A DNA stretch of 64,000 nucleotides. Source: Pseudogymnoascus verrucosus. Taxonomy: Eukaryota. Below the pieces are notes generated by a model, which had not been told where the DNA came from, searched no databases, and saw nothing but the letters and a program-made list of their open reading frames with translations. Shown here piece by piece: positions 3,148 through 63,919 of the stretch (positions within the stretch are counted from its first letter, which is position 1; each line of letters starts with the position of its first letter). A program made the position numbers and the translations under genes. The stretch is taken from assembly GCA_001662655.1 (NCBI GenBank), contig KV460212.1. The stretch is one strand, 5' to 3'.

Positions 3148-3472
3148 CAAACACCGGATTTACTTAATCCCATCTCCATCTCAGGCCATATGCTCCGTAA
3201 TTGTGTCCCTCCATCCCAATAACTTTTAGCTCACAACAATCCGCGAGGGAACGCCACTGACTCAACTTGGGCTTTTCGCCAACCGCGTGCCCCTTAGTCC
3301 TCTCCGCAAGATCGCCTTTTACAAAGACAAAGAGTCGTCAGAAACAAAGCCAGAGCCTTGACCGACGCATCCCTGTCGCGCCACTCGCACCTTCAAATGC
3401 CACGATAGTATTCAGTGAAGGGCTCTGCCTAGAAACCTCGACATTTTGACAGCACCCTCCCGTGCCTTGAAT

Positions 3473-6400
3473 ATGGATGCGAATATGGAGGTTGGACCGG
3501 TCAAAGAAGATGAGGTCCGCAACCCAGACCTCATGAACGACCCCGAATATGCCACGAATATAGATGGGGATGATGGTACCGGAGATCAAGACACATGCAG
3601 GATATGCAGAGGGGAAGCGACAGCACAAGAGCCTCTATTCTATCCTTGCAAATGCAGCGGCAGCATAAAGTTCGTCCACCAAGATTGTCTTATGGAATGG
3701 TTGGGACATTCGCAAAAGAAGCATTGCGAGCTGTGCAAGACACCATTTCGATTCACAAAGCTATACGCCCCGAATATGCCGCGGACGTTACCTTTACCTG
3801 TCTTCATAAAACATCTCGCCGTTCATATCCTGAAGAATATCGCAACATGGATGAGAATGTGCCTCGTCACGGTCGTCTGGCTCGTTGGACTCCCTTGGAT
3901 GATGAGACATATATGGGGTCTTTTGTTCTGGTTTGCAGATGGAGGATGGTCTTTCAAGCACTATCAATTCAGCCGCAATATCCCCGAACAACTGCGAAAC
4001 TCATCGGAAGCACTTGCGGTGAATGAGAAGCTAGCAAGCTTGGCTGCGAACGGAACATCACCGGCCAGTCCTCTCCTGGGATATCCGACGACGACACCAA
4101 TAATGTGGGAGGCCTTGACGAAACTCTACGAGCTCGTGGTGTCCCACAGGTACAACATGAGTTTGCCCGAACCGTCCATTATGGGGATTTTCAACTCCAT
4201 TTATAGCACCATGGGGCTTCGCGAGTATGGTCTACCAAGTAATATTTCGAACGGAACAACAGATGCCATGCTACTGGAGCCATACCCTGTTTTCAACCAA
4301 GCGATCGTTATCAAACATCCTTCTCTCCTGAGCGACGTCTACTTCCTCAACAACCTTACTCGTAGCAATTGGATCAACAGGCTTATAGTGACGTGCTTGG
4401 AGGGACAAATAATAACGGTAGTTGTTGTTGTATGCTTCATCCTCATATTCCTAATTAGAGAATGGGTTGTACAGCAGCAGCCTGGTATCAATATGGGAGC
4501 AGGATTCAATGCTGAATTCGCCAATCCCGACGCTCGGGAACAACTTCCACAGGACCCTATAGAAAATTTGCGCCAGGCCGACCGTGGAGACGTTGCTGCG
4601 ATAGATCGAATTATCCACGACTTTGAGGCGATACAGGATGTCATAGATCGAAGAGCTGAAGACAGGGGCGAACCAGTTCCTGCTCGGGCCCGAAGAAGAC
4701 TGGGTGGTTTTGATGAGAACAATGACAATCGCGAGGACTCCTTGGCAGCAGCACGCAACCTCGAACAGCAAGAAGCCCGGGCTTCAGATGATGAAGGAGA
4801 CGAAGCCAATGAAGCACTTTTAGCTGAACTCCCTACCTCGATTGACCAGATTGATGCCACGGAGTTCATTGCTCTGTGGCGTCGTGCCGATGGCGATGCC
4901 GACCAAATCCTTAGACTGATGGAGGAGGAGGGACTGGGCGAGCGCTTAAAGTACTGGAAAAACGCGTTGGAAGCGTTGCGGCAAGGAGATGCGGAATCTG
5001 GCGTTGTTGGGAGCCGTCGGATTGGGGGAATTCCGAGCAAAAGCCCGGAGCCAGAGAATGGCGAAGAGCTTGGCGAAAGTTCCCGCAACATGGACGGCCC
5101 CAAGTCGCGACCAGAGAAATCACGTCTGTTAACTATGGACCCAACACAACAAGAACTGCACATTGGAGACACCCTTTATCAGAAACTTAGGATCTTCATT
5201 CCGGAACTGGCGGGCAAGGTAACAGGAATGCTTCTTGATCTAGAAACTTCCGAGCTACTTGACCTTGTGGATGATGATGATGCTCTTTATGTAAAGATGG
5301 ATGATGCCCTCATCGTGTACAACGGATTTCTGATGGACGAGGGCAATGACCCGATCTTGACTAATGAGAAAGGAAAAGACCAGCTTCTTAGAGAGTTGGT
5401 CCTTCGAAAGGCTAGGAGGATGCATGTAGAGAGAGCAGAAAAGGTGGCGGATATATTTCTGGAAATGGACATTGAAGACCTACTCCACATCATCGAGGAC
5501 GACGTAACGTTCAAAACTAGGACCGAAGAGGTGTTTGCTTTCTACGAACTGCACCTTACTCAGATGCGGAAAGCTTTCCCTTCCAGAAAGGCAAAAGATA
5601 AATATTTGGCCGAGCATCCTGAGTTTATGCCGCCAAAAATTACGCCATCGTCACCAGAATTTTCCAAGGCCGATGCTGCCGATGGCACTGGCACCCGTCT
5701 TAGGTCTCGTTCGGCTTCTGATGGCTCACAAAGGCTTCCTTCGGCGCTTGCCCGCGACTACTGGGATTTCGATGGTCTACCAGATAATGAAGAAGAACGT
5801 ACGAATGCGGACTCTGCAGCCCCACTTCAAGGATCTTCCACCGACAGAAGCGTCGATACCGATGGGCTTGAAACAGACAACGAGTCACTGAAGGACCATG
5901 CTTCCGAACAGGATCGCCATTCTACAATGCAAGATGGGTTGGCCGGTGGGGTAGATGATTCTGAAAGAAGTACTGGTGACGGAGAACAACCTGATGAGCC
6001 CACAGCCCCCCTGGATGTATCCGGTGTAGCCACGCCCCAGGGAGATGATGCGCCACCTTTGGAGACCCCGCCACCCCCTCCGGGCCCTAGTAACGGGCAA
6101 CAACGAAATCCACCAGAAGGCATTATGGGCCACCTAACAGACTGGCTCTGGGGAGATGTGGATGGCGCGGCATATGAAGTTGAAGGCGACGATGAACATG
6201 TCGTTGATGATATCGACGCGGAGGAGCCTTTTGTTCCTCGCAATCGCCGCGAGGCTTTAGACCATGCGATTGATATTGGAGCACTAAATCTCGACGATCC
6301 GCGTGATCTAATGCAAGCTGTTATGGACAACCAAGCTGATGAGCTCGATCCGAATGATCCAAATGAACTGGATGATGCCGAAGACTTTGATGGTATAATG

Positions 6401-9058
6401 GAGCTTATTGGGATGCATGGACCTCTCACGAGCCTGATCCAAAATGCACTATTCGGAGCAGTTCTCATATCGTTAACGGTCGCTCTCGGTGTTTGGCTTC
6501 CATACAATGTTGGAAAACTGACGCTGCTGTTGACTGCTAATCCCATTTCCACCGTGAAGTTGCCACTCAAACTTGTCTTCAAGGCTGCTGCGGTGGTACA
6601 AGACCTCACACTGGTTTTAATCGGCTACATATCATATGCTCTCATCCGCATGGTTTCCATCTTGATGGCTTCTTTCACGATCAAGCCCAACAAATTATTT
6701 TTGTCGACAAGCGATACAGCGAACCTGGCCCTGAATAGCTTAAAATTTGCCTATTCTGCGGGAGAACGCGTCACCGGAGGATTCATCGGCGCGATGGCGC
6801 AAATCCCCGACTCTGAGATCCCCGCATTCTCAGCCGCATCCCACGAATCATTAATTCAAATTCAGTCTTTGTTCTCAAAAATTATAGGGTTCATCACAGG
6901 CTCCACTCTCGCCCAGGCCGTAACTTCAAGCACAGGGTCTGAAGCTTTACCCGCTTTTGATACCTCACATCTCAGAGAAGCTGCAGCGGCTGCCGGTCAA
7001 TCGATTATGGCGTTCCTCTCTGCACTTCCATCGATGTTGGCCAAATCGGAAACCTGGGTTATCAGGCTCAATGCCCACCCTCGAGCAGAGCCCATTGACC
7101 TTGCACTATCATATTGGGATGGCACTGATCGAGCATACGCAATTATAGCGGGATACGCGGCGTTCATTTTCCTCGGAGCTGCCTATATCAGAAAAGGCTC
7201 GCCGTTTTCATCGTCCCAAACCGGCAAGGACTGGGAGTCTACGATTATTGACGTCTTGAACCAGGCTGGTGGAGTCATGAAGGTCATCCTGATCATTAGC
7301 ATCGAGATGCTTGTTTTCCCACTCTACTGCGGTATGCTATTGGACGCGGCAACGTTGCCGCTGTTTGAGAATGCCACCGTTGCGTCGAGGACGATGTTTG
7401 CCATCACATCGCCCCTTACATCAATATTTGTACACTGGTTCGTAGGAACTTGCTACATGTTTCATTTCGCCCTCTTTGTGTCCATGTGTCGCAAGATCCT
7501 GCGATCTGGGGTACTGTACTTTATTCGCGACCCTGACGACCCCACATTTCATCCCGTCCGGGATGTGCTTGAACGGAACGTGGGCACGCAACTTCGAAAA
7601 ATTACATTTAGCGCTACAGTTTACGGCGCTCTAGTTATGATTTGCCTTGGCGGAGTCGTCTGGGGTCTTTCGTTTGCATTCATCGGAGTTTTACCCATTA
7701 CCTGGTCTTCAAATGAGCCGGTACTAGAGTTTCCGGTGGACCTTTTGTTTTATAACTTTTTGATGCCTGTGGCGGTCAAGTACTTCAAGCCGTCCGATGC
7801 CGTCCAGGCTATGTATTCATGGTGGTTCAGACGATGCGCACGACTTTTACGGCTTACGTGGTTCCTCCTTGACGAGAGGATGAATGATGAGGAGGGCTAT
7901 TTCCCTCAATGGAATTACTCGTGGAAGCGCATACGCGGCGACGACCTCTTCAAGGACGGCAAGCCGCATCCCGAAATCCCCTTTGTTAAGAACGGGCGCT
8001 ATGTGAGAACGCCAGACTCGGACATGGTCCGCATCCCCAAATCCAGGAACGCTTTCCTGGAGGTTAACGAGAAGAACCAGCGGATTGACGGCGAGCCCGA
8101 CCCCGAGGAGGGCCTACACGGAACAAAGTCGAAGCTCTTCAAGATGGTCTACGCACCACCGTGGTTCCGTACCCGCATCGCAGGCTTCATCTTCCTCCTC
8201 TGGCTCTTCGCCGCCCTCACCGGCTGCTCGCTCACCCTAATCCCCCTCGTCTTCGGACGGTGGGTATTCAACGCCATCCTCCCCTCCGAAGTCAAGAAAA
8301 ACGACATCTACGCCTTCTCAATGGGCATCAACATCCTCGGTGGCCTAGTCTACTGTCTCATCAACCTCCGCCCCGGCGCCGTGGCCCTGCACACCGCTGC
8401 AGTGGCCAACACCCGCGCTCCCGCCGCCATCCTCCGCAAACTGCTCGCCCTCTTCATCCGCACTCTTCGCCTCTCTTACGCATACGGCGCCTTCGTCGTC
8501 CTCCTTCCCACACTCGCCGCCGCCCTTGTGGAATTCTACCTCCTCATCCCGCTGCACACCTACTTCGCGCCCGGCTCCCGCCACACCATCCGCTTCGTCC
8601 AGAGCTGGACCTTGGGTCTGCTCTTCGTCAACCTCGCTCGTCGCGCTATACTATGGTATGCTGATTCTCGACCCGCGGCTGCACTTCGTGCCGTCGTGCG
8701 TAGGGGGATGCTGGATCCAGATGTGCGACTCGCGACGCGAGCATTCATCGCGCCCCTTACCCTCATCGCGGTGCTAGGACTCGCAGCGCCAATGGCGTGC
8801 GCGTGGACTGTCAACGCGCTGGGTTTGTTCGGGTCGACCGAAGAAGCGAGGACACGGGTGTATCGATACGCCTTCCCGGCTATGACAGCGGCGTTCGCGC
8901 AGGTTCAGGGGCTGGCGGCTGCGGCGGAGGTGGTCAGGGGGTGGAGGATGAGTATTAGGGATGAGGTGTATTTGATTGGGGAGCGGTTGCATAATTTTGG
9001 GGAGTCGAGACGGAAGGGGAGTGTGGGGATTCCGAGTATGGGGAGGATTGAGACGTAG
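3473..9058 (+). CDS. DOA10: ERAD E3 ubiquitin ligase Doa10/Ssm4 (MARCH6/TEB4 family) with an internal tandem MLLE/PABC insertion
   Basis: N-terminal RING-CH (CRICRG..PLFYPCKCSGSIKFVHQDCLMEWL..CELCK), many TM segments, TD-domain text (KVILIISIEMLVFPLYCGMLLD; YFIRDPDDPTFHPVRD) and C-terminal IRDEVYLIGERLHN. Intronless. The first ATG is at 3473; the ORF track uses an upstream TTG. Confidence 0.95.
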   Translation: MDANMEVGPVKEDEVRNPDLMNDPEYATNIDGDDGTGDQDTCRICRGEATAQEPLFYPCKCSGSIKFVHQDCLMEWLGHSQKKHCELCKTPFRFTKLYAPNMPRTLPLPVFIKHLAVHILKNIATWMRMCLVTVVWLVGLPWMMRHIWGLLFWFADGGWSFKHYQFSRNIPEQLRNSSEALAVNEKLASLAANGTSPASPLLGYPTTTPIMWEALTKLYELVVSHRYNMSLPEPSIMGIFNSIYSTMGLREYGLPSNISNGTTDAMLLEPYPVFNQAIVIKHPSLLSDVYFLNNLTRSNWINRLIVTCLEGQIITVVVVVCFILIFLIREWVVQQQPGINMGAGFNAEFANPDAREQLPQDPIENLRQADRGDVAAIDRIIHDFEAIQDVIDRRAEDRGEPVPARARRRLGGFDENNDNREDSLAAARNLEQQEARASDDEGDEANEALLAELPTSIDQIDATEFIALWRRADGDADQILRLMEEEGLGERLKYWKNALEALRQGDAESGVVGSRRIGGIPSKSPEPENGEELGESSRNMDGPKSRPEKSRLLTMDPTQQELHIGDTLYQKLRIFIPELAGKVTGMLLDLETSELLDLVDDDDALYVKMDDALIVYNGFLMDEGNDPILTNEKGKDQLLRELVLRKARRMHVERAEKVADIFLEMDIEDLLHIIEDDVTFKTRTEEVFAFYELHLTQMRKAFPSRKAKDKYLAEHPEFMPPKITPSSPEFSKADAADGTGTRLRSRSASDGSQRLPSALARDYWDFDGLPDNEEERTNADSAAPLQGSSTDRSVDTDGLETDNESLKDHASEQDRHSTMQDGLAGGVDDSERSTGDGEQPDEPTAPLDVSGVATPQGDDAPPLETPPPPPGPSNGQQRNPPEGIMGHLTDWLWGDVDGAAYEVEGDDEHVVDDIDAEEPFVPRNRREALDHAIDIGALNLDDPRDLMQAVMDNQADELDPNDPNELDDAEDFDGIMELIGMHGPLTSLIQNALFGAVLISLTVALGVWLPYNVGKLTLLLTANPISTVKLPLKLVFKAAAVVQDLTLVLIGYISYALIRMVSILMASFTIKPNKLFLSTSDTANLALNSLKFAYSAGERVTGGFIGAMAQIPDSEIPAFSAASHESLIQIQSLFSKIIGFITGSTLAQAVTSSTGSEALPAFDTSHLREAAAAAGQSIMAFLSALPSMLAKSETWVIRLNAHPRAEPIDLALSYWDGTDRAYAIIAGYAAFIFLGAAYIRKGSPFSSSQTGKDWESTIIDVLNQAGGVMKVILIISIEMLVFPLYCGMLLDAATLPLFENATVASRTMFAITSPLTSIFVHWFVGTCYMFHFALFVSMCRKILRSGVLYFIRDPDDPTFHPVRDVLERNVGTQLRKITFSATVYGALVMICLGGVVWGLSFAFIGVLPITWSSNEPVLEFPVDLLFYNFLMPVAVKYFKPSDAVQAMYSWWFRRCARLLRLTWFLLDERMNDEEGYFPQWNYSWKRIRGDDLFKDGKPHPEIPFVKNGRYVRTPDSDMVRIPKSRNAFLEVNEKNQRIDGEPDPEEGLHGTKSKLFKMVYAPPWFRTRIAGFIFLLWLFAALTGCSLTLIPLVFGRWVFNAILPSEVKKNDIYAFSMGINILGGLVYCLINLRPGAVALHTAAVANTRAPAAILRKLLALFIRTLRLSYAYGAFVVLLPTLAAALVEFYLLIPLHTYFAPGSRHTIRFVQSWTLGLLFVNLARRAILWYADSRPAAALRAVVRRGMLDPDVRLATRAFIAPLTLIAVLGLAAPMACAWTVNALGLFGSTEEARTRVYRYAFPAMTAAFAQVQGLAAAAEVVRGWRMSIRDEVYLIGERLHNFGESRRKGSVGIPSMGRIET

Positions 9059-10253
9059 GGGTGGGTGGGGTGGAATGGGAAATGGATGGGAGGAAGGGGG
9101 GGGGTAGGGGGGGTGGGATAGGGGCGTTTGGTGGTGGGAGCGGGTTTGTAGATTGTGTATTCGCATTATACGTGTTATGGCGCTTCGAGTGGTTTACGTA
9201 GGTTTAATATTATAACTTTCGATACATAATCGCGCCGTGCTTGGATGTATGTGTATGTGCGCCACCTTACAAAGTGCGCCGCCCTATATCAAGCCGACAA
9301 TGGCAATTGTACAGATGAGTGAGCTCTTACCACTCGCAATCTTGTATATTCTAGAAGTCATTGGGCCGCTGGTGGTGATATGCGATCCAGGGAAGTTCGG
9401 GTAAGCAGGCTGTATGGTGATGTGCAAGACACGTTTGGCATAACGGGATATTCGGTGATGGGAGGGGGGGAAGATGGCAAGATCGTTTTGTGATAGTACT
9501 ATTGATATGATGACAGGATTGATCTGACGACAGTAATAGCACCTACAACAGGAATGGCAACCACAACAGCGGCGGGGAGGCCAGCATCAACGACAGCTGC
9601 GAAGCTCTGATGGGCGGCGGCGGTTGGATCAACAGGGACAGCATATAGCCAGTTTGTAGGCGACGCCTTGGCCATAGTCAACCTCGGTCTGAGTGCACTG
9701 GTGGAAGTATATTATATCCCATCGGGTATTGCGAGGTGGGTGATTGTCTGGTTCTACTTCTCCTTGGCAAGAGCCTTGACATATGGGGGATTCAATACTG
9801 GCGTGGTGTTCATGCTGTAGTGTCATTTCTAGGAGTGATATGAGAAACAGGGGTGAAGCTAAAGAAGCTTCTGGTGCAGCTATCTTTTTTCTCACATCTT
9901 TCACCTCCTTTTTTTTTATATGAAGCGGCCTGGTGGATATAATCTGATAATATCAGCATTTATACCCATCCGCAGCATTCCCCCAAACGTTCTCGCCAGT
10001 AACCCCCCCGCAGCGCGTACGCCATATCCGTCTAGGGTAGCGTATGTTAGCAGACGCCCCTTCACTTTGGATTTTTCAGTGCCCTTTTATTCCTATCAAT
10101 CAATGCAGTTAACTGGAAACCGTTTATACGTGGAAAAATACGACACACGAAGCTTGTTCATAGCGGATTGCACCCACGGAGCACATAGATGGCTAGGAGG
10201 AGTTCTGGTCGTGGGGTTTGAACTGCTGTCGCCGGTCTGCTGCTGGCGGTTGT

Positions 10254-10338
10254 GAGATGCTGCTGTTGACAAGATGCTGCTGTCAACAAGATGTTGCTGT
10301 CACTAACATACCGCTGTCACCAAGATCCCCCCGTCACG
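10254..10338. repeat. Degenerate ~18-bp tandem repeat (AAGATGCTGCTGTCAAC-like), about 5 copies
   Basis: gagatgctgctgttgac / aagatgctgctgtcaac / aagatgttgctgtcact / aacataccgctgtcacc / aagatccccccgtcacg. Confidence 0.7.
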
Positions 10339-13300
10339 AAACCCAAACCACCTCCATCTCCCCCCTCACAATAACATAGCCTATCAACCACCTATAACAC
10401 TAGCAATCCCAGGGCAGGCACTCACGAGCCAAGGTAGAATCAGACATCGTTAATTTTTCTTTTCATGTATGCTAGGAAAGGAAATCAGATCGCCGCGGAT
10501 ATCTATCACTTTATAAAGGCCTGGGATATTTAATCGAGAGTCGCTGCATACGTCGCGGATATGAGGGCATTCGCGAGTAGAGACACTTCGTTTCGTTACA
10601 CTACCTAATTACTTCTTTAATTGTTTGTGGACTTGCTGTCGTCGGGACTACGTGAAGAGAGCGATCCCCAAGCAACTGGATATATCGTATATCATATCCC
10701 CTCCCCTCCTCATCCCCATCATCTCCCTCCCTCCCCCTCACCCATCTCACCCCCTCCCTCCTCCATCCATCCCCATCCCATCAAAGAAAAAAACCCAGAT
10801 TCCCACATGATCCCCCCTCCTCCCCCATCTCATCCATCATCTCCAAACCCACAACCTCAAACCAAAAATACCCATCGTATACCGTACACCCCCCCCCCCG
10901 CAACCCCGGGAATCCTCGATCCCCCTAACCCCCGATCCAAGCTAAAAAAAAACCCCCCAGCTATCGAAAATTAGTACGCACACCATGGGTCATCCGCCGG
11001 CGTCAGTTTCCCCCGCAGCCGCGCGTGGTGGGGTGTGGTAGCTTGGCTGTTAGCGTTGGTGTGGTTAGTTCCCATACTTGACTACTGTATGGCGTGCCGC
11101 TAGTTTGGTTTGGTGGGTGAGAAGGGGGAGGGTATGAAAGAGGAGGGAGGGAGGAGGGAGGAGGGAAGATATGAGGAAGGTGTGTGAAGGCAGAGGCAGG
11201 CAGACATTCGATCGAGACATTTGATCTGTAGAGTTTCTTCGATCTCTCCTACCCATCCCCCACACACACCCCCACGACTCGCCCTACAAACCACAAAAGA
11301 GAGAAAGTAGAAGCCGATGAGACAACAGACGGGACGGGTGAGACATATCTCACCTACATGAACATGTCTCGTCTCACCCCGATCACTGGGGATGGTGGAA
11401 AATACGAAAGGACAGGCTTGGTATAGGGGATCGGCAAGGGATCTACGGGCGGGTGGTATGGCACGAGGTTGCGGGTGGGTTTTTTGGTGAGTCTGCGGAT
11501 GGGGGGAGGTGTGAGTCTTCGTGTGCTGCCTTGCCTGCCTTGGTATTGCATCGGTCGTAGGCAGCTCCTTTCTTTCTTGCTTTCTCCTCCCTTCGCGACG
11601 ATGACTGATTGATCGATTGCCTTGATTGATTGACTGACCGATTGATTGATAACCCATCCCCATCATTGGCCACCGTCGCGGCGCAGCATAAGCACTCTTT
11701 CGAGGCAGCAGCAGGAGCAAGCAGGGTAACTGAACTTAAGTTAACTTACCCTCCTGCAGCGCACCAGCCGGCAAACAGGCATCCGTCACCTTATCCGTCG
11801 CCCCATCAACGAACGACGACTCTTACTCACCCCCCCTCAAGCCGTAAGCTCAGCTCCCCTCAGCTCTCCCCTCGCTCCCTCGGTGCCGATGATGGGGGAG
11901 GGCTGGAGATGGTGGTTGGTGCTCGGTGAGTTGTGCATGAATGGTGCTACTGCGGGTTGTGGGTGGTAGGGGGGTGTGAGTGGGCGGGTTAGTGTTTGCT
12001 GATTGAGTGTGTATAAGTTGTATCGACGATGAGGATGCGTGTGGGTGTTTACTCGATAATGGGGATGGGGATGGGGATGTTGGCTGGTGGATGGTGGCTG
12101 ACTGAGGACGCCAGGCAACAACATGAGAGCGACTGGATGAGAATAAGAGGGCTGCATGGGGTGTGAGATCGGTACGTGGATAGTACTCGCCCAGTACGAG
12201 TGACTGTGTGTTTCAGAGGGGATGGCAGGTGGGTTGGGGGTGTGACGTGTGGGAGTGTGTGTGGAAGATGGCGAGGAAGAGAGGGTAGAGGTGTAGGTGG
12301 GAGAGAATGGGAGTGGATGGGAGTAGATGCGGGACGTTGAAAGGTTGCAGGGAAGTAGCGGAGGTGTAGTTGTGGAGTACCTATCTCCAAGGTCGACTAC
12401 TGTCTGTATATGCACACTACCTGGGCGTCGTTGATGACTCTTCTTTTTTTTCCTTTGGTGGTCGTTCCTTCCTTCCTTCGTTTCGTTCTTTGCGGTGATC
12501 CGTGCGCGAGGGCGGTGATAATGGATAATCTGCCTCAATATCGTCATCGTCGCTGCCACTGTGGGTGGATTCTTGAGCTAATATTCTTCCCACTAGCTAA
12601 TATTCGGTCTACTTTCATCTCTCGTCTCTCATATTAGTACTGGCGGCTTGGCTTGGCTGTCTTTCATACTGTGCATACTCTGTTCTGTCCATCTCATATA
12701 GCTCGTTATTGTTGGTACTATTACTGCTATTGCTATATTGGTACACAGCACAATCGACGATGACTCCTTCCCTTCCCCCACCATCGGGGATATTTTCAAT
12801 GTCGTGAATATCGTGAATATCCAACTTACCACCACCCCGCCGCCCCCCTTCACTCCCCCTCATCCCCCCTTCCCCGTCACCAATTCCCTTCCCTCCCCCT
12901 CCATCCCCTTCCTATTCTATCCTATCCCCCTTCTACCCTTCCTGTCCCATCCCACTCCCCTCCTCCCCCCCCTCTCCCACACCTACCCCTCCTTCCATGC
13001 ACGCACCATGGCTGCGGTTGCCTGGCCGTCGGCGTCATGATACATGATACCATACGCGCCACAATGCCATTCTGTATGTATGGGTACTGTATACAATACA
13101 CGCCACAATACCATCCGGTATGTATGAGTACTGTATCGATATCGATATACATGATATTCCAAAAGAGGACAGACAGAGCCAAGACACACACACCGGTCAT
13201 GGTGAAATTGATGGCATGACACCCTCTTCTCCCATTTTATCGCATTCACTCCCACTCCCACTCTCACTCCCACTTCCACTACCATCCACTCACACTCCCA

Positions 13301-26464: not shown

Positions 26465-27029
26465 GGTTTATAAATATTAGTAAATATGAGACTGGCGTAA
26501 AGTTACTTCTTTAATAGAGTGAATGAAAAATAAAGAGAGTTACTTGTGGTTAATTGAGAATTACATATTTGTTTTGTTATTTTGTTGACTTGGTAAATCC
26601 ACCATGACGTCGTAAAAAATTATGACGTAAATAGCGATGTGATAAATATTTAGAACATATTTTGTTTTAAACTTTCCGGTGGGGAAGGGGACCGACCTGA
26701 ATACTAACCATAGAATACCACATCTATATAACAATACTAAAAGTCATCACAAATCACTAATGCACCTTATCTCGTCTTGGCCATACATATCCACGTCAAC
26801 CTAAAAGCTCTAGCAATAGTAGCCAATGGAGTCGGCTGAGTTTGACAAACACCTTTATCCGTGTTGCAGCCCCTCATCAGAGCCAATTCGGGGATGACAT
26901 TCTACCCCTCACTTGACTCTCAACAGCAGCGTATATATACTAGAGGAGAAAACCTACGGATAATTTTGTAGGTGCCCATCGGAACAGACAGCCATTTTTG
27001 AATTGGTCGTAAAAGAGAAATATTAGAAG

Positions 27030-29071
27030 ATGCTTTCCCAACAAGATAACCGCCTTGTATTCCACTACGACGCCGAAGAGCTATGGATAGAGCCATGGGG
27101 AGAAAACGCCCTCCGAGTGCGTGCAACCAAGCAACGCTCGATGCCAACTGAGGGCTGGGCATTGGACGTACCACCCATCTCACCAAAGGCAAAAATCACC
27201 GTCGACGAGACAGAAGCAACCATCACCAACGGCAAGATCAATGCCACCATCTCAAAGCGGGGTAAGCTTATTGTATACAACAGCAAAGGGGAAAAATTAC
27301 TAGAAGAATACGCACGGAATAGACTGGATGTGCGGGATCCCAAGTGCAGCGCCATCGAGGTGGAGGCGCGCGAATTTAAGCCGATTCCTGGCGGAGACTA
27401 CCATCTGACTATGCGCTTTGAGTCGGTCGATGTCAATGAGAAGATCTTTGGTATGGGACAGTACCAGCAGCCGCATTTGGATTTAAAGGGGCATGATCTG
27501 GAGCTTGCACATCGGAATTCTCAGGCTTCGGTGCCATTTGCTCTGTCTTCACTTGGATATGGTTTTCTCTGGAACAATCCAGGAATTGGCCGGGCGGTCT
27601 TGGGGAAAAATACGATGAGCTTTGAGGCTTATTCGACGTCGATTCTCGACTACTGGGTTTGTGCGGGAGATTCTCCGGCTGAAATTGTGGAAGCGTATAG
27701 TGGCGTTACTGGAACCGTACCAATGATGCCTGAGTATGGACTCGGCTTCTGGCAGTGCAAGCTTCGTTATCAGACGCAGGAGGAGTTGCTGGAAGTTGCG
27801 CGCGAGTACAAGCGCCGTGAGTTGCCTATCGATCTCATAGTCATTGATTTCTTCCACTGGGAATTACAGGGCGACTGGAAGTTTGACCCAACCTACTGGC
27901 CCGATCCAGGTGAGCAATTTTCATACGAAGACGACTTCGACAAGGTCAATTCTCACATACTACAGATGCAATGATAGCAGAATTAAAGTCTCTGAACATT
28001 GAGCTCATGGTTTCGATATGGCCTACCGTAGACAAGCGGGCTGATAACTACCCCGAGATGCTTGAGAATGGCTACCTCATCCGCGTTGACCGCGGTATGC
28101 GAACAGTTATGGAATTCCAAGGCAACACCGTACACTTCGATTCCACCAACCCGGGAGCGAGAAAGTACGTATGGGAGAAGGCGAAGACAAATTACTTTGA
28201 TAAGGGAATTAAAGTCTTTTGGCTTGATGAAGCGGAGCCAGAATACACCGCGTATGATTTCGATAACTACCGTTACCATGCCGGCTCAAACCTGGCAATC
28301 GGGAACATCTACCCTGTAGAGTATGCTCGCACATTCTATGAGGGTCAAACTGCCGCTGGGCAAGAAAATGTCGTCAACTTGCTTCGTTGCGCCTGGGCCG
28401 GCAGTCAGAAGTTCGGTGCCTTAGTTTGGAGTGGTGATATTGCTTCATCGTGGGGCTCGTTCAGGAACCAACTTACAGCTGGGCTACAAATGGGAATCGC
28501 AGGTATCCCCTGGTGGACGACTGACATCGGAGGTTTCCACGGTGGCGACCCCAACGACGAAGCATTCAGAGAGCTGTTCGTAAGATGGTTCCAATGGGGA
28601 ACTTTCTGCCCCGTCATGCGTCTGCATGGTGACCGCGAACCGCACAAGCCGCAGCATGGCACTACCGGAGGAGCCACCTGCACGTCAGGCGCCGACAACG
28701 AAGTGTGGTCTTACGGACCTGAGATTGAGATGATATGTAAGAAGTACATGCTTCTGCGCGAGGAAATGCGAGAGTATACCAGAGGGCTGATGCGCGAGGC
28801 GCACGAGATGGGGACGCCTGTGATTCGGACCTGCTTTTATGAGTATCCAGAGGACCCGAAATGCTGGGAAGTTGATGATCAATATATGTACGGAGACAAG
28901 TATCTATGTGCCCCAGTTCTGAAGGCTGGCTGTGTTTCTCGGGCGGTTTATTTTCCGAATGGCAAAAAGTGGAAGTTGCTGGATGGAGTATATGTGTATG
29001 AGGGCGGCCAGACACAGAACATAGACTGTCCACTTGATACAATGCCCGTGTTTATCAGACAGGATGAGTAA
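27030..29071 (+). CDS. Glycoside hydrolase family 31, XylS-type alpha-xylosidase/alpha-glucosidase, cytosolic
   Basis: GFWQCKLRY, IDLIVIDFFHW, nucleophile WLDEAEPE, acid/base WSGDI, WTTDIGGF and DQYMYG. Intron 27910-27965. No signal peptide. Confidence 0.92.
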
Positions 29072-30286: not shown

Positions 30287-32322
<2,036 letters not shown>

Positions 32323-34184: not shown

Positions 34185-35246
34185 TTTTGGAGTGTGGCAG
34201 CCGCGAGACTGACGGAAGCAGAGCTTGGTGGTGATGAGAATGAATGAATATCTCGCACCATGAAATGAACTGCAGGAAGCACCACAGCCTACTCATGTAT
34301 GACCACCAGCTAGTTAAGGATCGGCGAGGGAATGCCTTCTGACCTTTATAACAAAGCACGAAGCCGAACTTGATTCGCTCTCATTAGCTGTAACGGCATT
34401 AGATGAACCGAAGCCGACACCCTAACTGCCATCTTGGCGTATAGTTGGACCGAGATGTTGGATGGAACGTTCCCTCGGTACTTTTTTTTTAATACGGTAT
34501 TACTAGAGTACAAGGCGGCGACGGCCGAGGTGAGAATGGGTCAGGTGTGTTCCTTTGAGTTTCCGTTATTTGTGATTTGTCACTTTGATATATTACTCTC
34601 ACTATGATAATCATTAAATACCATTCTTTTCTATATGTGTACTTATTATTTTTATTGATTCCCCAAGGTTATAAGTTACTTGCCGCCCAGCTCCAATCTT
34701 GAATTGCGGGGAAAGGCCCGACCTTTGTGACAGCGGCACTGTGGGGTTGCTAGTGTGCAAGTAAGCTCCAAGTGCCCACGCCCAAGCGCCACCTGAGACC
34801 GAGACTCAATGCGGGGAACCTGGGCACGACTACAAGTAGCACTTACACCAACGCGGCTTCTCGCACGTGCATGTTTACATCTATGACGGACATGGAAGGT
34901 CGAATTCTTCAACTTGACGCCTGCAGGGACATGCTTGCGATTTATCTTGGCTTCATGGCGTACTCATCTGCTGTATAGATATGCTTCGTGGTGTCTACGT
35001 AAGACCTACAGATATTCGGACCCAGTTATAGCGAGGGAAGCAACTTATTCAAGGGCAAGTGCTTATGCTTATGTGAGTTGTAAGAGATGGATATAGAATG
35101 GTAAGACAATGTAAGTACGACGCTCCTTCTCCTCTTCTTTTTCCTTTCTCAAAATCTTCACTGTATCAAGTGAACCTCTTGTGTTCTCTCCCTGAAGTTG
35201 TCTACTTCTCTCATTGCATCAAAGCGAACCAAGGCGCATCAAAACT

Positions 35247-37532
35247 ATGCGCCTCCTGGGAAGCTTCGCTCTTTTGGCTGTACCCCTCTTTGGGAAAACC
35301 AGTGCCACTCCTATTGCTCCAAGAAGTGGCACTAGCACTGAGAGTATTACTTACATCACTCCAATATGGGAGGGAGCTCTTGCTTCTCACACGAGGAGCG
35401 ATGACCTTGCCGTCCTTTCAACCATGAAGACCCTACTGGGCCTCGGTGGAACTTATACCAAGCTAGGCTGGTCTTTCTCGTCCTGGGCACTCAGTCGCGA
35501 TATCCACGGCCCGGACAGTGATTACTCCTTTGACCCGACCAACCTCAACCACATGCTTGATCTAGCCGTTTCTTCTGACCTGCCGATTCTCGTCCACATG
35601 AATAATGGGAGATGGGCAGACTGCTGCACTCCGAATTCAAGCGGGGGCTGGGGCGATGTTCTGCTGGATATCATTGCCGCACAGCCCAACACGACCGTAT
35701 TGAACAGCTCTGGTGGCTCGTTGTTTAGCCATAATGGGGGAAACAACTACTTCACTCTTTCGCGCCTGAATACCGTCTATCGCAACTACAAGAAACGCAA
35801 TATCCAGGCTTCTACCGAAGCAATTGTAGAATGGGCGGCCGCACACCCATCTCTCTTTGTGGGCGTCAGCCTCGACTCCGAAACGATCATGCCGAACAAT
35901 GGAGCAGACTATAACCCACTCGCAACGGAAGAGTGGAGGCAGTGGCTCCAGAACATTGGTATCTACGGCCCAGGTGGAGCCTACTTCGGTCAAGGCCGCA
36001 CCCCCGCGTTCTCGGGCATCGAGTCCTTCAACAGTGCAATGGGAACCACATTCGCCTCCTGGAACGCCCTCCAGCCACCGCCCTCTATCACGCCCGGCCA
36101 GACATTCAGTGAAGAATGGAATCGTTGGCGTGTAACTCTCATCAACCACGCCGTCGCTGATGAGACCTTTTGGATTGCTGAGGCTGGCGTCCCCCGCGCC
36201 CTCGTCTACGGCCATCAAACTCCCCGCCTCGATGACTACGGCTTTGCTGACGCCCTTGAAACCGCAACAGCCGCAAACGGCGCGAGCGGTGTCACGTACT
36301 ACGCCTGGACTCCCAGTGATATTGGGCAGGTAGACAATCCCCTACGAGGCACAGGCAAGAACAACTTCGGCGTTTTCGAATTGAACCCGCTCACCACGGA
36401 TGCAACAAGGTCGTATAATACGCTACTCACTCTTGTAAACGACGGCATTAAGGTCATCTGCCCAAACTCGTGGGAATCAGACCAGGCAACCAAAGACCAG
36501 TACGCCCTCTTCGGGTCACCGAACTGGGGCGACACATTTGGACTTGCCCTTAACAAGTTCCTCGCCGACCGCGCCGAGATCCCACGGAACATCCAGCCAC
36601 CGCCTTGGAATCCAGGGAACCGCGTTGTCGATTTCTACGACGCCTTCCCCGCTGCCACCAGCTCGGGGCCGGATAACCATCTAGAACCTGCTGGCTCTGT
36701 CGGAGGTGTCATTCGGAAATCAGTCTACTCTGCTGTTGGTGGAGTTATCAGCTACTCCGTTGCTCTCCCCGCCGTTTCCGGAACACAACGCCTCAATCTC
36801 TGGACCTCAGTCGGAATCCGCGACGGCGCCGGCAACGGCGGTGAATCCACCTTCCAAGTCACTATCAATGGCCAAAACCTCTTCGGCACTGGTCTCCGCC
36901 TCAACAAAAGCTTTTGGGTCTGGAAGCACTGGCTCCCCGCCATGGTCGACGTCACTCCGTGGGCCGGCAGCACGGTAACATTCGCTTTTACGACTACAGG
37001 TGAGAACTACTACGGCTGGACGACATGGGGCGCACCTGCTATCTACGCATCTGCTACTGGCAATGACCTCGCGGCAGGGAAGAGTGTGAGCGTCAGCTCG
37101 TCTGATGGTGCTGGCGCGGGCTGGGACTCGGGGTTCCTCACGGACGGGAACGTGGATGGTGACGTGCGAGGACGCATTGGGTGGTCGTCTGTCTCACACG
37201 CTAGTGCTACTGGGAGCGAGTATGCGAGTGTGGACTTGGGATCTGAGAGGAGTATCGGACGCGTGGTGCTATTTGCGCGTTCTGACCTTGTGGAGGGTAC
37301 GGGATCGGGGTTTCCAGTTGATTTCAAGATTCAGGGGAGTGGAGATGGGGCAGCATGGAGGGATTTGCTCGTGCAAACGGGGTTTCCAGCGCCGTTGGCT
37401 GGGGAGGGATTGGTATTTGCGTTTCCTAGTGCGAACGCGAGGTGGGTGAGAGTTGTGGCGAGTAAGTTGGGTGGGGTAGGGGGTGAGAATTGGTATAGGA
37501 TGCAGTTAGGGGATTTCCAAGTTTACGCGTGA
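35247..37532 (+). CDS. Secreted multi-modular glycoside hydrolase: GH42-like clan-A catalytic domain + NPCBM/NEW2-like module + F5/8 type C (CBM32) module
   Basis: Signal peptide MRLLGSFALLAVPLFGKTSA. Catalytic-like motifs: VSLDSE (cf. GH42 WHVDNE), EEWRQWL..FNSAMGTTFASWNALQPP and FGVFELNP. SVGIRDG..STFQVTINGQ..VDV..WGAP is NPCBM-like. DLAAGK..LTDG..VDLG..FPVDFKIQGS..ARWVRV is CBM32-like. Intronless. Confidence 0.8.
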   Translation: MRLLGSFALLAVPLFGKTSATPIAPRSGTSTESITYITPIWEGALASHTRSDDLAVLSTMKTLLGLGGTYTKLGWSFSSWALSRDIHGPDSDYSFDPTNLNHMLDLAVSSDLPILVHMNNGRWADCCTPNSSGGWGDVLLDIIAAQPNTTVLNSSGGSLFSHNGGNNYFTLSRLNTVYRNYKKRNIQASTEAIVEWAAAHPSLFVGVSLDSETIMPNNGADYNPLATEEWRQWLQNIGIYGPGGAYFGQGRTPAFSGIESFNSAMGTTFASWNALQPPPSITPGQTFSEEWNRWRVTLINHAVADETFWIAEAGVPRALVYGHQTPRLDDYGFADALETATAANGASGVTYYAWTPSDIGQVDNPLRGTGKNNFGVFELNPLTTDATRSYNTLLTLVNDGIKVICPNSWESDQATKDQYALFGSPNWGDTFGLALNKFLADRAEIPRNIQPPPWNPGNRVVDFYDAFPAATSSGPDNHLEPAGSVGGVIRKSVYSAVGGVISYSVALPAVSGTQRLNLWTSVGIRDGAGNGGESTFQVTINGQNLFGTGLRLNKSFWVWKHWLPAMVDVTPWAGSTVTFAFTTTGENYYGWTTWGAPAIYASATGNDLAAGKSVSVSSSDGAGAGWDSGFLTDGNVDGDVRGRIGWSSVSHASATGSEYASVDLGSERSIGRVVLFARSDLVEGTGSGFPVDFKIQGSGDGAAWRDLLVQTGFPAPLAGEGLVFAFPSANARWVRVVASKLGGVGGENWYRMQLGDFQVYA

Positions 37533-39979: not shown

Positions 39980-42152
39980 TTACATGCTGTAATCGTTAGT
40001 ATCTACACACACAGAATCAACATAGAGAATAAACATACCGCTCCACAGGGCTCAATCCCAGCAGCCTCATTCCATTGTTCAGCACAACCCTCGCCGAATC
40101 ATACAGCGCCATCCTCGCCTTCATCAGCTCCGCCTCCGAGCCAACAATGCGGAGGTGATCGTAACTCGAGCTGAGAGTGTGCGTCATCTTGAACAGGTAC
40201 GTCAGAACCGTCGTCGGCTCCAGCGTCCTCAGCGTGTTGTTAACGACATCTGGGTACTGGGAGATGACACGGATGAGGTTCTGCGCGTGCGGCTCCGTCA
40301 GCAGCGACAGGTCCGCGCCGGCAATCTCCTCGGGGCTCAGCGCCGCCTTGCGGGTGATAGAGCAGAGACGGGCGTGCGCGTACTGGAGGTATGGGCCGGT
40401 GTCACCCTCGAAGGAGGTCATGGCCTCCATGTTGAAGGTGTAGTTGTTGATACGCTTTCCGGACATGTCCTGGACCATGACGGAGGAGATACCAAGGATA
40501 TCGGCGACGGCCTCGGGGTCGGCCACTTGCTCGTACTTGGCCTCGTTCTTGCGCATGACTTCGTGCATCTTGTCGCCGACGTCGCGGAGGATGTCGTCGA
40601 GGAACTTCACGGTACCACGGCGGGTGCTCATGCCGAGGACCAGGCCGAAGTTGATGTGCTGCACCTTGGCGGCGAGCTCCTTGTAGCCCATCAGCTCGAT
40701 AATCTTGAAGAGCTGCTTGAGATGCAGGTCCTGCGCCGACGCGACGACGTAGATCATGTGGTCGAAGTTGTATTTATCGACACGCTGCTGGATCTCACTG
40801 ATATCACGGGTGAGGTACAGCGCTGTGCCGTCCTTCTTCTTGATAACAGGTCGCTCCAACGCCTTGCCAGCCTTTCCAGGCACGTGCTTCGCGAAGTCCA
40901 CGATGACAGCTCCCTCCGACTCCTCAGCAATGCCCATCTCCTCCATCTTCTTGCCCGTCTGGGCCATGCGCTCCTCCTTAACCTGAGACTCTCCCGAGTA
41001 GTCGTCGAAGTGGATGTTCAACCTAGCGTACGTCTCCTTGTACCTCTTGATGCTGAGCTCACGGAAGCGGGCCCATTGTGCAATAGCCTTCTCGTCGTTG
41101 TCAGTCATGGCCTTGAAGTATTTGCGAGCCTGCTCATCAATGCCGGTATCTTTGATCTTCTGTGCCTCGTCCTTCTTGCCGGCCTCCTCAAGCGCCTTAA
41201 TCTCGTCCTTCTCCTTTGTCATATCCGTGTTGATCTTAACGTAGATCTCGTAAAGGTGGTTAATAGGATCCGCCTTCAGCGCTTCCTCGTTACCGTACTT
41301 CTCAAATCCGAGGGCCAGTAATCCGTACTGCTTGCCCCAGTCTCCAAGATAGTTTATACGGACAACATCCCAACCCGCGCTTTCGTATAGGTTCGAGAGG
41401 AAGCCACCGATGATTGTGCTTCGGAGATGTCCAGCATGGAAAGGCTTCGCAATATTCGGCGACGAGAACTCCACGATAATCTTCTTCTTTCCCTTCGACG
41501 GGTCCGCCGGGTCCTTCAGCCCATTGTTCGGGTTGCTACCAAACGTCTTTTGGCTCTTGAGAATCGTCGGCAGCAGGATCTGCGCCAGCTTGTCGACCTT
41601 GAAGTAGAACTGCAGGAACGGGCCTCCCGCAACAGGCTTCTGCACCAGTGCCGTCTCCTCAAACTATTCCGCCGTTAGCATCACTCCGTCAGCCCCAAAC
41701 AAGGCCGCGCATACCTTTGCCGCCCACTCCTCAGCAAGCTCATTCGGCTTTTTGCCCTTCACACGCAGCGCGGCGACGGGCAGAACCATATCACCCTTCT
41801 CAAGTGTTTGCGTCCACTGCAGCGAGGGGTACACTATCGAACGGTCCACGCCAGTGATCTCGGACAGGATGGACGTGATGTGCGCCCTGTAGATATCGAC
41901 CGGGTTGATCTCCGGGTAGCAATTCGGGTAGGCATCGAGCGAGCCCTTCAGTCCGAGGGATTGCAGGCTGGTGGCCAGCTCATCGGCGTTGGCGTGTGCC
42001 ATGTTGATGTATGCGCGCTTTGGCGGGGTAGTATAGGCGCGGTGGGCGAGGGGTTTCCAGAGTCTTTTGCGCGTGTACTTTGGCAGATTCGAAAGGGTTC
42101 GTGGGAGTGTGTGTCGTGTAGCGCGCAGGAGGGTTTGGGGTAGGATGTTCAT
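39980..42152 (-). CDS. RRS1: Arginyl-tRNA synthetase (class I) with an N-terminal mitochondrial-like extension
   Basis: VEFSSPNIAKPFHAGHLRS, NYLGDWGKQ, LYLTRD, GMSTRRG, GDTGPYLQYAHARL and C-terminal PVERM. Introns 41664-41714 and 39987-40038. Confidence 0.96.
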
Positions 42153-48493: not shown

Positions 48494-50135
48494 CTACTCC
48501 TCAATACCCCCAACCTTCTTCTCCTTAAACATATCCAACTCCCCCATACTGCCCACCCCATCCAACAACCTTTTCGCCTCCTTCCACCCCCCCGGCCCCT
48601 CCGACTCCACCTCCGCCCTGGAATCCACATCTCCTCCAAACGCGCGCCTCCCAACCCCCCCACCAACCCGCTCCCCACTAACCTGTTCCTTTGTCCCCCT
48701 AACCGCCTGATCAAGCACACTATGCGCCTTCGCAGCAGCCGCCGACTTCGCACCCTCCATCTTCTCCCCCATCCCCACCGCCCCATCCACCAGCGGCAGC
48801 GCCGTCGCCCCCGCCGTCTTCGACCCCTTCATCCTCTCCGCCGCGCGCTGATACGCGTCCTTCTTCCTCGCTAACTTCTTCGCCTGCTCCGCCGCGCGCT
48901 CGTACGCGTCTGTCTTCTTCACCTCTCCCAGTCCAACTTTGCGATACGCGCTCATGAGAGCGAAGTATAACTTGATGACCCACCCGTGAACTTGCTCCTT
49001 CACAAGCATCGTAATTCCATGACTGAAGAAGCCCTTGAGTACCTCCCCCCCGAGTCCAACGTAGAGCGCCTCTAGCCCCTCATCGCGGTAGATGCGCGCT
49101 ACGGCACTGAATACCGTCGCGTCAGCAGCGCGCTTGAGGTCCTTCCGTCCCACTGCCTTGGCGGCTTTGGCAGAATGCGCGGCCTTGTGGAGGTCGGATT
49201 TCGCCTCCGCCTTGAGTTCAGCACGGGACTGCTTAACTGCTGGTGCGGGTGAGACTTGTGAGCGCGACTTGGCGAGTGAGAAGGGGTAGGTGATACTCGA
49301 TGCGGCGGCCTTGGAAAGCGCAGCAAGGAGGAACGTAAGACGTGCCCCTGGGTCGTCGCGCTTGGAGCGTGGTAGTAGGCGTTTCAGTGACTCGAAGAAG
49401 AAGAATGTGAGGGAGGGGTTGAGTGTCAGTACCAGACTGGCAGAGTACCCGCCCCAGAAGCCTTGGATGCCCTTCTCCTTGAGGATGCGATTCGCGATAT
49501 CCTGCACCGAGGTTGCGCTGCGGGAGGTCTGGGCGCGAGTTGCGATGTTGGATAGGGGTGTAGTGAATAGCTTACTTAGGGCGCCAGCAGCGGCGCCCAC
49601 GGCGAGTTCGTCAAGGGTGCTGAGTTTGTGAGTGCTGTGTGCATCGAGTCGGTGCGTGCGTAGGTAGTTATAGAAGAGGAAGAAGAGGAATGAGTCTGCG
49701 ATACTCTTCGCGGTGTCGGGGATGGCGCCAGCGAAGAAACCTGCAATGCCGTCACGCGCGTAGATCTTCTCGGCGGCGTCGAGGATGCCGTCGTATGTGT
49801 CATCGGAGGAGTCGGTGGAGTTGGAATGCTGGATGCGCTGGACTTGAAGACGCTTAATTATCAGATCAAGGGGGTAGGTGACAAGGTTCGAGATGGCCGT
49901 TCCTGTCGAACCAGAGATAGCGTGGCCGAGTGCGGGTAGGGCGTTGGAGGGAGAGCCATGGTGGTGGTGCTGGTGCTGGTAGAGGAGGGAGTTGGGGTCT
50001 TCTTTCTCGATATGGTAGATGGAGTAGGCGTCCTATGAGTAGACTGTTAGCTACCGTCATTCGTGATTTCTGTGACTCCTAAACGCGCTGAAACAATGAC
50101 TTGCATACCAGTTGGCTATTGTAGATGTGCGCCAT
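48494..50135 (-). CDS. ANT1: Peroxisomal adenine nucleotide transporter (mitochondrial carrier family)
   Basis: Exon 1 50135-50109 and intron 50033-50108. Then LPALGHAISGSTG, YPLDLIIKRLQVQ, TPLSNIATRAQ, ASLVLTLNPS, TYPFSLAKSR and KGFFSHGITM. Confidence 0.85.
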
Positions 50136-63139: not shown

Positions 63140-63919
63140 TCGTACGGCTGATATGGGCAATATCAAAAGGGCGAAGGGGGGGTTATAGGAAGATGTTGAT
63201 TCTAATCGACGAGGTTTGTCGAGAAGATTGTCTAATTCGTAACAAGCATGGGGGGTTTATGTTCGAATATATATAGGACCTCGAGTCGTTGAACCTAGAG
63301 AAAAGAAGCACTTCGCGTCAGCCAAGAAGTGCCATTATAGGGAAGAATATATTTGAGGGGCAACGGGGGAACAAGGCGAGGAAATGAAAGGATGATAAAT
63401 GTGTTATGCGCGCGAGGTGAGAGGTATGTGGCGAGGATACTTACGACGAGTCCCAAATTTATCGCTCGACGGCGAGTTGTTTGCTGCGTAAGAGAGAGAG
63501 AAGGAAGGTTCGACCGGAGAAGTTTTAAACACGGCGTATTCCAGCTACGTGCAAACTTCCGGCGAGGAAAGAGCGAGGGGCGGCGATGCCGGAGAGTCGT
63601 GGGTGTTCCAGAGACTCGGTGTTGACGCGGGCAAAGACACAACCTGGGGAAAGGTTTCAAATGAACTTTTATAGGACCAGTTTTATTGTCTTGCCTGGCC
63701 CTCCAGAGAGCGTGGGGAAGACTCTTAATAGAAGCGTTGGTGGGAATTGATTGGAGGCGATAGTGTCTCAGCGGCGATGACGTCTACTCGTGAATAACCT
63801 CGCTTGACCTCTTTTTCTGGAACACTGAATGACAAGAGAAGTCAGATGAAAGAATCAGATGAGGAATAAAATATTTCAACGTGGGAGGCTGGCGATGGCC
63901 TAGATAATAAGTATGGCCA

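Follow-up and report, generated by a model that had tools for sequence, protein, structure and literature searches.

Tandem MLLE domains inserted in a loop of a Doa10/MARCH6-type ubiquitin ligase in Pseudogymnoascus and its close relatives

Why would a ubiquitin ligase of the endoplasmic reticulum (ER) membrane carry the domain with which poly(A)-binding protein (PABP) docks peptides? This question is raised by a gene of the cold-soil fungus Pseudogymnoascus verrucosus that lies in a stretch of 64,000 nucleotides of contig KV460212.1 (assembly GCA_001662655.1), which we call the window. A first reading of the DNA, here called the original prediction, had proposed that the gene encodes Doa10/Ssm4, a ligase of ER-associated degradation (ERAD), that two MLLE (PABC) domains stand in tandem in its long hydrophilic loop, and that this fusion could tether factors bearing PAM2 peptides to the ligase.

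The gene lies in a stop-free frame from 3419 to 9058 on the plus strand, whose first ATG at 3473 opens a protein of 1861 residues, P0001 (P numbers denote proteins in our lists). In a search of Protein Data Bank (PDB) sequences this protein matches the yeast Doa10 chain 8pd0_A (E 4.4e-40), and its RING matches the Doa10 RING structure 2m6m (E 9.7e-16); RING-CH and MARCHF6_C domains are both found by Pfam (Table 1). Yeast Doa10 has 14 transmembrane segments; in P0001, hydropathy reveals many hydrophobic segments from residue 992 onward, and in the ortholog alignment the invariant residues form a dense block at 1260–1430. By these matches the product of 3473–9058 is a Doa10/MARCH6 RING-CH ubiquitin ligase of the ER, as had been predicted, and by analogy with its yeast counterpart it may be placed at the inner nuclear membrane as well. 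Ligases of this family work with Ubc6/Ubc7. Its closest named relatives, 73–90% identical over the loop, come from Pseudogymnoascus species (Leotiomycetes, Thelebolales).

The two peptides that had suggested the tandem are indeed read in the plus-strand frame, the first from 5147 and the second from 5375. A Pfam scan of the whole protein finds PF00658 in two stretches (E 3e-24, 85.2 bits). Taken by itself, copy 1 (5078–5332) reaches 67 bits (E 1.5e-18) and copy 2 (5333–5620) 31.5 bits (E 1.8e-07), both above the 27 bits that Pfam sets as gathering score for this family. When the tandem was compared with PDB sequences by phmmer (E ≤1), the 24 best of 25 matches were MLLE domains of PABP or UBR5, with PABPC1 at the top (E 1.1e-10). 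At the level of sequence the MLLE match is therefore far beyond chance, which confirms the observation as real.

We modelled the 181-residue module from an alignment (A1) of ten proteins that carry it. The resulting model shows two helical bundles, with a mean predicted local distance difference test score (pLDDT) of 83.6 and a predicted template-modelling score (pTM) of 0.73, and MLLE domains fill the first 31 ranks of its Foldseek list. In VIA-align comparisons copy 1 (model residues 12–88) superposes on PABPC1 3ktp_A with Z 13.3 and a root-mean-square deviation (rmsd) of 1.6 Å over 77 of 78 residues, on UBR5 1i2t with Z 10.7 and rmsd 0.8 Å over 61 of 61 residues, and on MLLE2 of Rrm4 (7pze) with Z 8.6 at 13% identity. 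Because copy 1 took up the structure-match list of the tandem, copy 2 was modelled separately (alignment A3; pLDDT 79.5). Ranks 1–28 of its Foldseek list are again all MLLE, with TM-target up to 0.83; the values are 0.81 against 8smo_A (rmsd 1.7 Å, 69 columns) and 0.81 against UBR5 3ntw (1.5 Å). For so short a domain Foldseek gives modest E-values (about 1e-2). MLLE domains are right-handed bundles of four or five short helices, some 70 residues long. Both copies are thus predicted to adopt the MLLE helical bundle, and on this point the original prediction is borne out by profile and model together.

We then considered the residues that form the peptide pocket. MLLE domains bind PAM2 peptides with micromolar affinity. 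Binding of PAM2 (xxLNxxAxEFxP) is centred on helix 3, KITGMLLE, and the PAM2 phenylalanine enters its pocket thanks to a glycine in helix 2; MLLE1 and MLLE2 of Rrm4, with Ser and Arg at this position, bind neither PAM2 nor the related motif PAM2L (PMC9249222). In copy 1 the helix-2 element I-G-[D/N/E] and the helix-3 element KVTGMLL[D/E] are present throughout the main clade and in nine of the ten rows of A1, the exception being the eroded protein P0133, and helix 3 reads KVTGMLLE or KITGMLLE in most carriers. By its residues copy 1 looks PAM2-competent. Copy 2 carries Arg (in the window), Lys, Glu or Thr at the glycine position, with EKVADIFLE as helix 3; it appears to have no canonical PAM2 pocket, and to speak of two PAM2 binders would therefore be too strong.

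The proposed tether presupposes a loop that is not lumenal. Between the RING and the loop P0001 has two hydrophobic segments (about residues 123–147 and 310–331), and the next begins at 992. Six N-x-S/T sequons fall in the 162-residue loop 148–309, one in the 659-residue loop 332–990 and none in the N-terminus. This pattern is as expected if the first loop is lumenal and the second, the TM2-TM3 loop (between transmembrane segments 2 and 3) that bears the MLLE domains, is cytosolic. In yeast Doa10 the RING faces the cytosol and the TM3-TM4 segment lies on the leaflet of the lumenal side (PMC10928120), which places TM2-TM3 on the cytosolic side, and MARCH6 is described with a 'conserved long cytosolic loop' (PMC10776854). 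Hydropathy, sequons and yeast topology thus agree that the loop is not on the lumenal side.

Is the module translated and maintained? Compared with P0013, a related carrier, P0001 is 60% identical in the first MLLE and 28% in the second, without gaps in either, and 42% in the helix that follows copy 2; the linker before the module reaches 17%, the loop behind it 27% with 37 gap columns, and the membrane domain 66%. A metagenome scan with an alignment as query returned two loci, L001 and L002, which are identical and thus not independent; a scan with a single protein as query gave no matches. L001 belongs to a relative and is 51% identical over the module; all 1172 codons of its frame are open. 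Between the window and L001, synonymous and nonsynonymous differences per site amount to 0.775 and 0.199 in the first MLLE, 0.789 and 0.370 in the second, and 0.672 and 0.589 in the 12-codon lead-in; no dN/dS ratio is quoted because the synonymous sites are saturated. The contrast between the two classes of change indicates translation of both copies and constraint on both, greatest on copy 1, and by these counts the module is under purifying selection.

We also looked for RNA over this region. Four sequencing runs were mapped to 3300–9200 at a likeness of at least 80%; one run of 24 is recorded as RNA. Six short contigs could be placed. A soil metatranscriptome contig covers 4783–5035 with zero differences, and another, whose run is RNA by guess only, spans 4944–5204 and enters copy 1 by 58 bases. 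None of the six shows a splice joint. That the segment might be missing from the mature protein, as an intron, a chimera of the assembly or a fault of the gene model, could be argued from the fact that the placed contigs did not reach across the tandem. Such an error is nevertheless exceedingly improbable, given the 1861-codon open frame of the window, the 1172 open codons in a relative that is only 51% identical over the module, the lack of indels in twelve carrier proteins from separate assemblies, the strong suppression of nonsynonymous change and the absence of any joint in the placed contigs.

The original prediction regarded the fusion as specific to one lineage. A word-indexed search with the loop returned 12 proteins, each with PF00658 and PF25417 (DUF7889). 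An exhaustive HMMER search of 1.84 billion representatives gave 988 matches at E ≤1e-3, the best 150 of which were seen; a domain scan covered 17 of these 150 and two proteins from the word-indexed search. Among the 17, P0013 is the only Doa10 with a Pfam-level MLLE. P0133 is a Doa10 by its MARCHF6_C domain and matches the tandem region below Pfam detection, and P0039, P0093, P0102 and P0115 match DUF7889 only. The conserved C-terminal 662 residues retrieved 1589 proteins at E ≤1e-20; in the best 120 of these, precomputed PF00658 annotation occurs in 13, namely 12 from the Pseudogymnoascus clade and P0268 from the lichen fungus Gallowayella. Finally, a custom MLLE profile built from 274 domains of non-Doa10 matches was run on 125 Doa10-type proteins. 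It found two domains in the same 12 proteins, one in P0268 and a faint pair in P0133 (E 0.26 and 11); 108 of the 125 gave no signal, and three further matches were spurious (E >40).

When 17 orthologues are aligned over their full length, the module stands out as a clean insertion directly behind DUF7889; Claussenomyces, Leptodontidium, Cadophora, Sclerotinia, Glarea, Blumeria, Lasallia, Blastomyces and the protein P0163 do not have it. Its length is exactly 181 residues in all 12 carriers, with zero indels. A tree of 49 orthologues was computed on their last 900 residues, a region without the insert (IQ-TREE in quick mode, LG+G4, SH-aLRT support only, unrooted). One clade with support 100 unites the eight carriers included, the module-free P0163, which nests with P0011 and P0012 (support 93), and the pair P0133/P0271 on a long branch (0.92). 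This pair has a two-bundle segment at the position of the module and keeps the linker D-P-x-L-T-x-E-x-G-K. The simplest history would be one gain at the base of the clade, erosion in P0133/P0271 and loss in P0163; we infer this order, since the tree is unrooted and quick. The tandem fusion thus appears confined to a single Leotiomycete clade around Pseudogymnoascus, and further carriers may exist beyond the matches listed. As a separate observation, the Doa10 proteins P0133 and P0271 evolve fast and have no Pfam-level DUF7889, and a His/Asp-rich run, HGHHEHHHDHRHDHDLDHDH, is inserted right behind their PFVP motif (described below).

The prediction of a lineage-specific fusion therefore holds: the tandem is not general in Pezizomycotina. 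In addition, a single MLLE was gained separately in a lichen clade. One MLLE is present at residues 385–450 (PF00658, E 6.6e-11) in P0268 (Gallowayella concinna) and in P0276 (Xanthomendoza sp.), a member of the same cluster. It stands about 85 residues upstream of DUF7889 (534–581), whereas the tandem of Pseudogymnoascus is inserted downstream of that element. Two more carriers, at 63–65% identity, are P0277 (Xanthomendoza sp. 2) and P0278 (Gallowayella weberi); of the 14 proteins returned, the other 11 have no MLLE, including those of Xanthocarpia, Usnochroma, Caloplaca, Flavoplaca and Gyalolechia. With the custom profile, four of ten lichen proteins tested were carriers, and related Teloschistaceae had no insert. 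In the alignment this is a clean insert of about 75–80 residues between the hydrophobic segments at 294–312 and 844, in the same TM2-TM3 loop as the Pseudogymnoascus module, at a different point. In the 49-ortholog tree P0268 and P0276 pair within Lecanoromycetes, with an MLLE-free sister group; all four lichen carriers are gene models from metagenome-assembled genomes. Judged by insertion point and tree, the Gallowayella/Xanthomendoza MLLE is a second gain, independent of the Pseudogymnoascus tandem. The landmark between the two insertion points, DUF7889, is itself a conserved helical element (…EF..LW.RA…LR.IE.EG…) of the TM2-TM3 loop, present in most Pezizomycotina Doa10 orthologues among the matches listed; each MLLE insertion flanks it on one side.

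What, then, might the module do? An ancestor of the Pseudogymnoascus clade gained the tandem-MLLE module in the cytosolic TM2-TM3 loop. We propose that copy 1 would dock PAM2-type short linear motifs through its canonical pocket and bring their bearers, as ubiquitination substrates or adaptors, to an E3 ligase bound to the ER membrane, while copy 2 would act as scaffold or accept a different ligand, comparable with the Rrm4 platform. In fungi, PAM2 bearers would include factors such as Pan3 or Pbp1/ataxin-2. On balance we consider this docking account rather probable. Its basis is domain identity, fold, the residues of the pocket, the position of the loop in the cytosol, constraint and the recurrence of the gain; what we infer is that peptides bind, which ligands these are and what follows for them.

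Several observations weigh against this proposal. Copy 1 of the window itself reads MLLD instead of MLLE. In the lichen MLLE the helix-2 glycine is replaced by Ala, and this domain is conserved no better than its flanks (64–68% versus 61–68%). P0163 has lost the module, and in P0133/P0271 it has eroded so far that Pfam does not detect it; some lineages can therefore dispense with it. None of the six placed contigs reaches across the tandem to show directly its retention in the mRNA. Finally, the biological function of UBR5's own MLLE is called still unclear (PMC11572963), so that the analogy with UBR5 rests on an incompletely understood case.

A different role altogether would be that of a helical insert that has drifted away from PAM2, as a spacer, in oligomerisation or for another partner at the ER or nuclear envelope, its conservation reflecting the constraint of folding only. 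The pocket is already gone from copy 2, P0133 and P0271 keep the two-bundle layout and the linker while the MLLE signature has gone, and the tandem pTM suggests that both bundles may pack as one unit. We regard such a drift as unlikely, since copy 1 keeps its exact ligand-contact signature (the glycine and KVTGMLL[D/E]) across lineages that are 43–57% identical over the module, which is more than maintenance of the fold alone would require.

The ligand might also be found within the ligase itself. About 200 residues past the module, in the same loop, lies a motif W..WG…DDEH.V.D..AE.PFVP, the best-conserved part of an otherwise fast-evolving TM2-TM3 loop. In 24 aligned orthologues W893, E908, E917, P919 and F920 are invariant, and D907, D913, V921 and P922 are conserved at 90% or more; the motif is kept with or without MLLE across Leotiomycetes, Lecanoromycetes and Eurotiomycetes. 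It is older than the insertion of the module and is a candidate in-cis ligand. No description of it was found in the Doa10 literature examined. Binding of the module to a peptide of its own Doa10, with AE.PFVP as the best candidate, could gate the RING or the substrate channel. The motif tops the conservation of the loop and shares with PAM2 an acidic run and an F-x-P core, and in UBR5 the MLLE binds a PAM2-like peptide from the HECT domain of the same protein (PMC9249222). However, regular expressions for PAM2 and PAM2L gave zero matches on P0001: the motif fits neither the PAM2 patterns nor the PAM2L core [DE][DE]-F-x-Y (PMC11572963), and its spacing from the hydrophobic residue to the phenylalanine is one residue short of the PAM2 consensus. 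It is equally conserved where there is no MLLE, and should therefore have another primary role. Gating in cis thus seems improbable to us, and docking of PAM2 motifs in trans by copy 1 remains the reading that we prefer.

We compared the fusion with the systems in which its parts are known. The nearest counterpart of copy 1 is the MLLE of PABPC1/Pab1, at about 35% identity and with the same five helices and signature; there, however, the domain stands at the C-terminus of an RNA-recognition-motif (RRM) protein on poly(A) tails, and here it is embedded in a membrane ligase. UBR5 (EDD/HYD) is an E3 whose MLLE binds PAM2 of Paip proteins (PMC9249222, PMC11572963), and it is likewise a ubiquitin ligase with an MLLE inserted inside a larger functional region. 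It differs in being a soluble HECT ligase with a single four-helix MLLE in a host protein not homologous to Doa10, whereas the ligase described here is a polytopic RING-CH protein of the ER membrane with two MLLEs, of which the first has five helices and resembles that of PABP. No HECT family is among the Pfam matches of P0001, and the resemblance is one of principle only.

Rrm4 of Ustilago maydis is a fungal protein with several MLLEs, only one of which keeps the helix-2 glycine and binds known peptides (PMC9249222); its other MLLEs, with Ser or Arg, represent the substitution class of copy 2, and Rrm4 also attaches to a membrane compartment. Unlike Doa10, it is an RNA-binding protein of endosomal transport with N-terminal RRMs and not a ligase, and its binding MLLE recognises PAM2L (FxY core), while copy 1 looks PAM2-canonical. 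No RRM is among the Pfam matches of P0001, and what is shared with Rrm4 is only the mixed array of canonical and non-canonical MLLEs. Doa10 of S. cerevisiae and human MARCH6, in turn, share the RING-CH, the C-terminal element and, as far as the sequence match goes, the membrane domain, and their topology places the TM2-TM3 loop in the cytosol; the yeast chain in the PDB matches P0001 only outside the MLLE region, and the Doa10/MARCH6 structure papers examined describe no MLLE-type domain.

Suppression of the rna14 type is as a rule put down to a stabilising effect on the mutant protein. The original prediction had pointed out that yeast SSM4 was named as a suppressor of an mRNA-stability mutant. 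A title linking SSM4 with rna14 does exist in the reference list of PMC3237617, but it lends no support to an mRNA role, because the S. cerevisiae Ssm4 chain has no match to the MLLE region in the search of PDB sequences.

PMC9249222 describes MLLE only for PABPC1, UBR5 and Rrm4-type proteins, with Rrm4 as the first to have multiple MLLEs. In 8.1 million papers of PubMed Central (PMC) and in bioRxiv we found no description of an MLLE in Doa10/MARCH6, in agreement with the original prediction, which knew of none; among the papers listed, co-mentions of MLLE/PABC with ERAD occur in a review on Huntington's disease, a review on tumour immunotherapy and a study of ataxin-2 bioinformatics. The architecture is visible in public precomputed Pfam annotation, and is therefore undescribed rather than undetectable. 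New, then, is an MLLE-bearing E3 as in UBR5, but in a new host protein, in tandem and gained twice. MLLE was also seen beyond the described architectures in proteins unrelated to Doa10 (P0014, P0016, P0020, P0026 and P0037): molluscan proteins (Octopus, Babylonia, Mytilus) have three to seven MLLE repeats, a rhodopsin-type receptor of Nucella with seven transmembrane segments has four, and a protein of the plant Kingdonia combines four MLLEs with an F-box and a beta-propeller, another ubiquitin-ligase component.

Substrate recognition by Doa10 is otherwise traced to the membrane domain and to degron features, and for ERAD the module would be a rare dedicated, modular domain for docking substrates or adaptors on this ligase. 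The fusion hints that the degradation of ER proteins is connected with factors of the mRNA tail in a way not yet described. It also offers a natural experiment: a membrane E3 in genetically tractable fungi, with a canonical and a degenerate MLLE and with clades of gain, erosion and loss, which could show what an E3 gains by reading PAM2 motifs. That one loop gained such domains twice, independently, speaks for a position both permissive and useful for the addition of recognition modules. In a much broader sense, the placing of a PABP docking domain into one Doa10 loop by two unrelated ascomycete lineages could mark a new pathway, in which PAM2-bearing proteins that regulate poly(A) tails and translation are directly recognised by a ligase of the ER and nuclear envelope. 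We think it doubtful that the case extends so far. If it did, Doa10 would degrade PAM2 regulators (deadenylase, ataxin-2-type and termination factors) or hold them at the ER surface, the fate of ER-localised mRNA would be coupled to ERAD-C, and the PFVP motif shared by all Pezizomycotina Doa10 loops could belong to this circuit as an earlier and weaker component.

Table 1 Features of the ligase gene and of its surroundings in the window (TM, transmembrane segment; residues are those of P0001 unless stated otherwise).
Feature	Position	Strand	Remarks
Doa10/MARCH6-type E3 ligase gene	3473..9058	+	1861 codons and stop, uninterrupted
RING-CH (RINGv), PF12906	3596..3736	+	residues 42-88, Pfam E 9.9e-17
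TM1, first hydrophobic segment	3839..3913	+	about residues 123-147, hydropathy
TM1-TM2 loop, probably lumenal	3914..4399	+	6 N-x-S/T sequons
TM2, second hydrophobic segment	4400..4465	+	about residues 310-331, hydropathy
DUF7889, PF25417	4850..4984	+	residues 460-504, Pfam E 1.9e-15
Inserted module, 181 residues	5078..5620	+	residues 536-716
MLLE copy 1, five helices, canonical	5111..5338	+	module residues 12-87; helix-2 Gly, KVTGMLLD
MLLE copy 2, diverged	5369..5545	+	Arg replaces helix-2 Gly; helix 3 EKVADIFLE
Conserved helix running on from copy 2 (YELHLTQMR...), within module	5543..5620	+	
Loop motif W893...DDEH.V.D..AE.PFVP	6149..6238	+	residues 893-922
TM3 start and main membrane domain	6446..8422	+	
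MARCHF6_C, PF23113, C-terminal	8423..8959	+	residues 1651-1829, Pfam E 2.8e-51
GH31 glycosidase	27027-29071		
Alpha-amylase fragment	31405-32322		
F5/8 type C lectin-domain protein	35196-37532		
Arginyl-tRNA synthetase	40017-41663	-	
Mitochondrial carrier	48494-50032	-	
NOSIP-like RING protein	50705-51829	-	
Vps5-like protein	54762-56045		
CBM21 protein	61160-63256	-	

A loose PAM2-like regular expression run on the six frames of the window had a sole match, at 57929–57958, which is unlike PAM2 and was discarded. Elsewhere in the window, a minus-strand frame of 753 codons (2–2260) runs off the window end; it is rich in Ser, Ala and Val, with 'ASS..S..' repeats close to its C-terminal part, and Pfam finds no family in it at E ≤1e-5. 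Downstream of the ligase gene, at about 9000–12600, open reading frames on both strands in six-frame translation are rich in Pro, Ser, Thr and His, which suggests low-complexity intergenic DNA with a pyrimidine/purine skew. The neighbouring genes between 27027 and 63256 are ordinary fungal housekeeping genes, functionally unlinked to the MLLE-Doa10 fusion.

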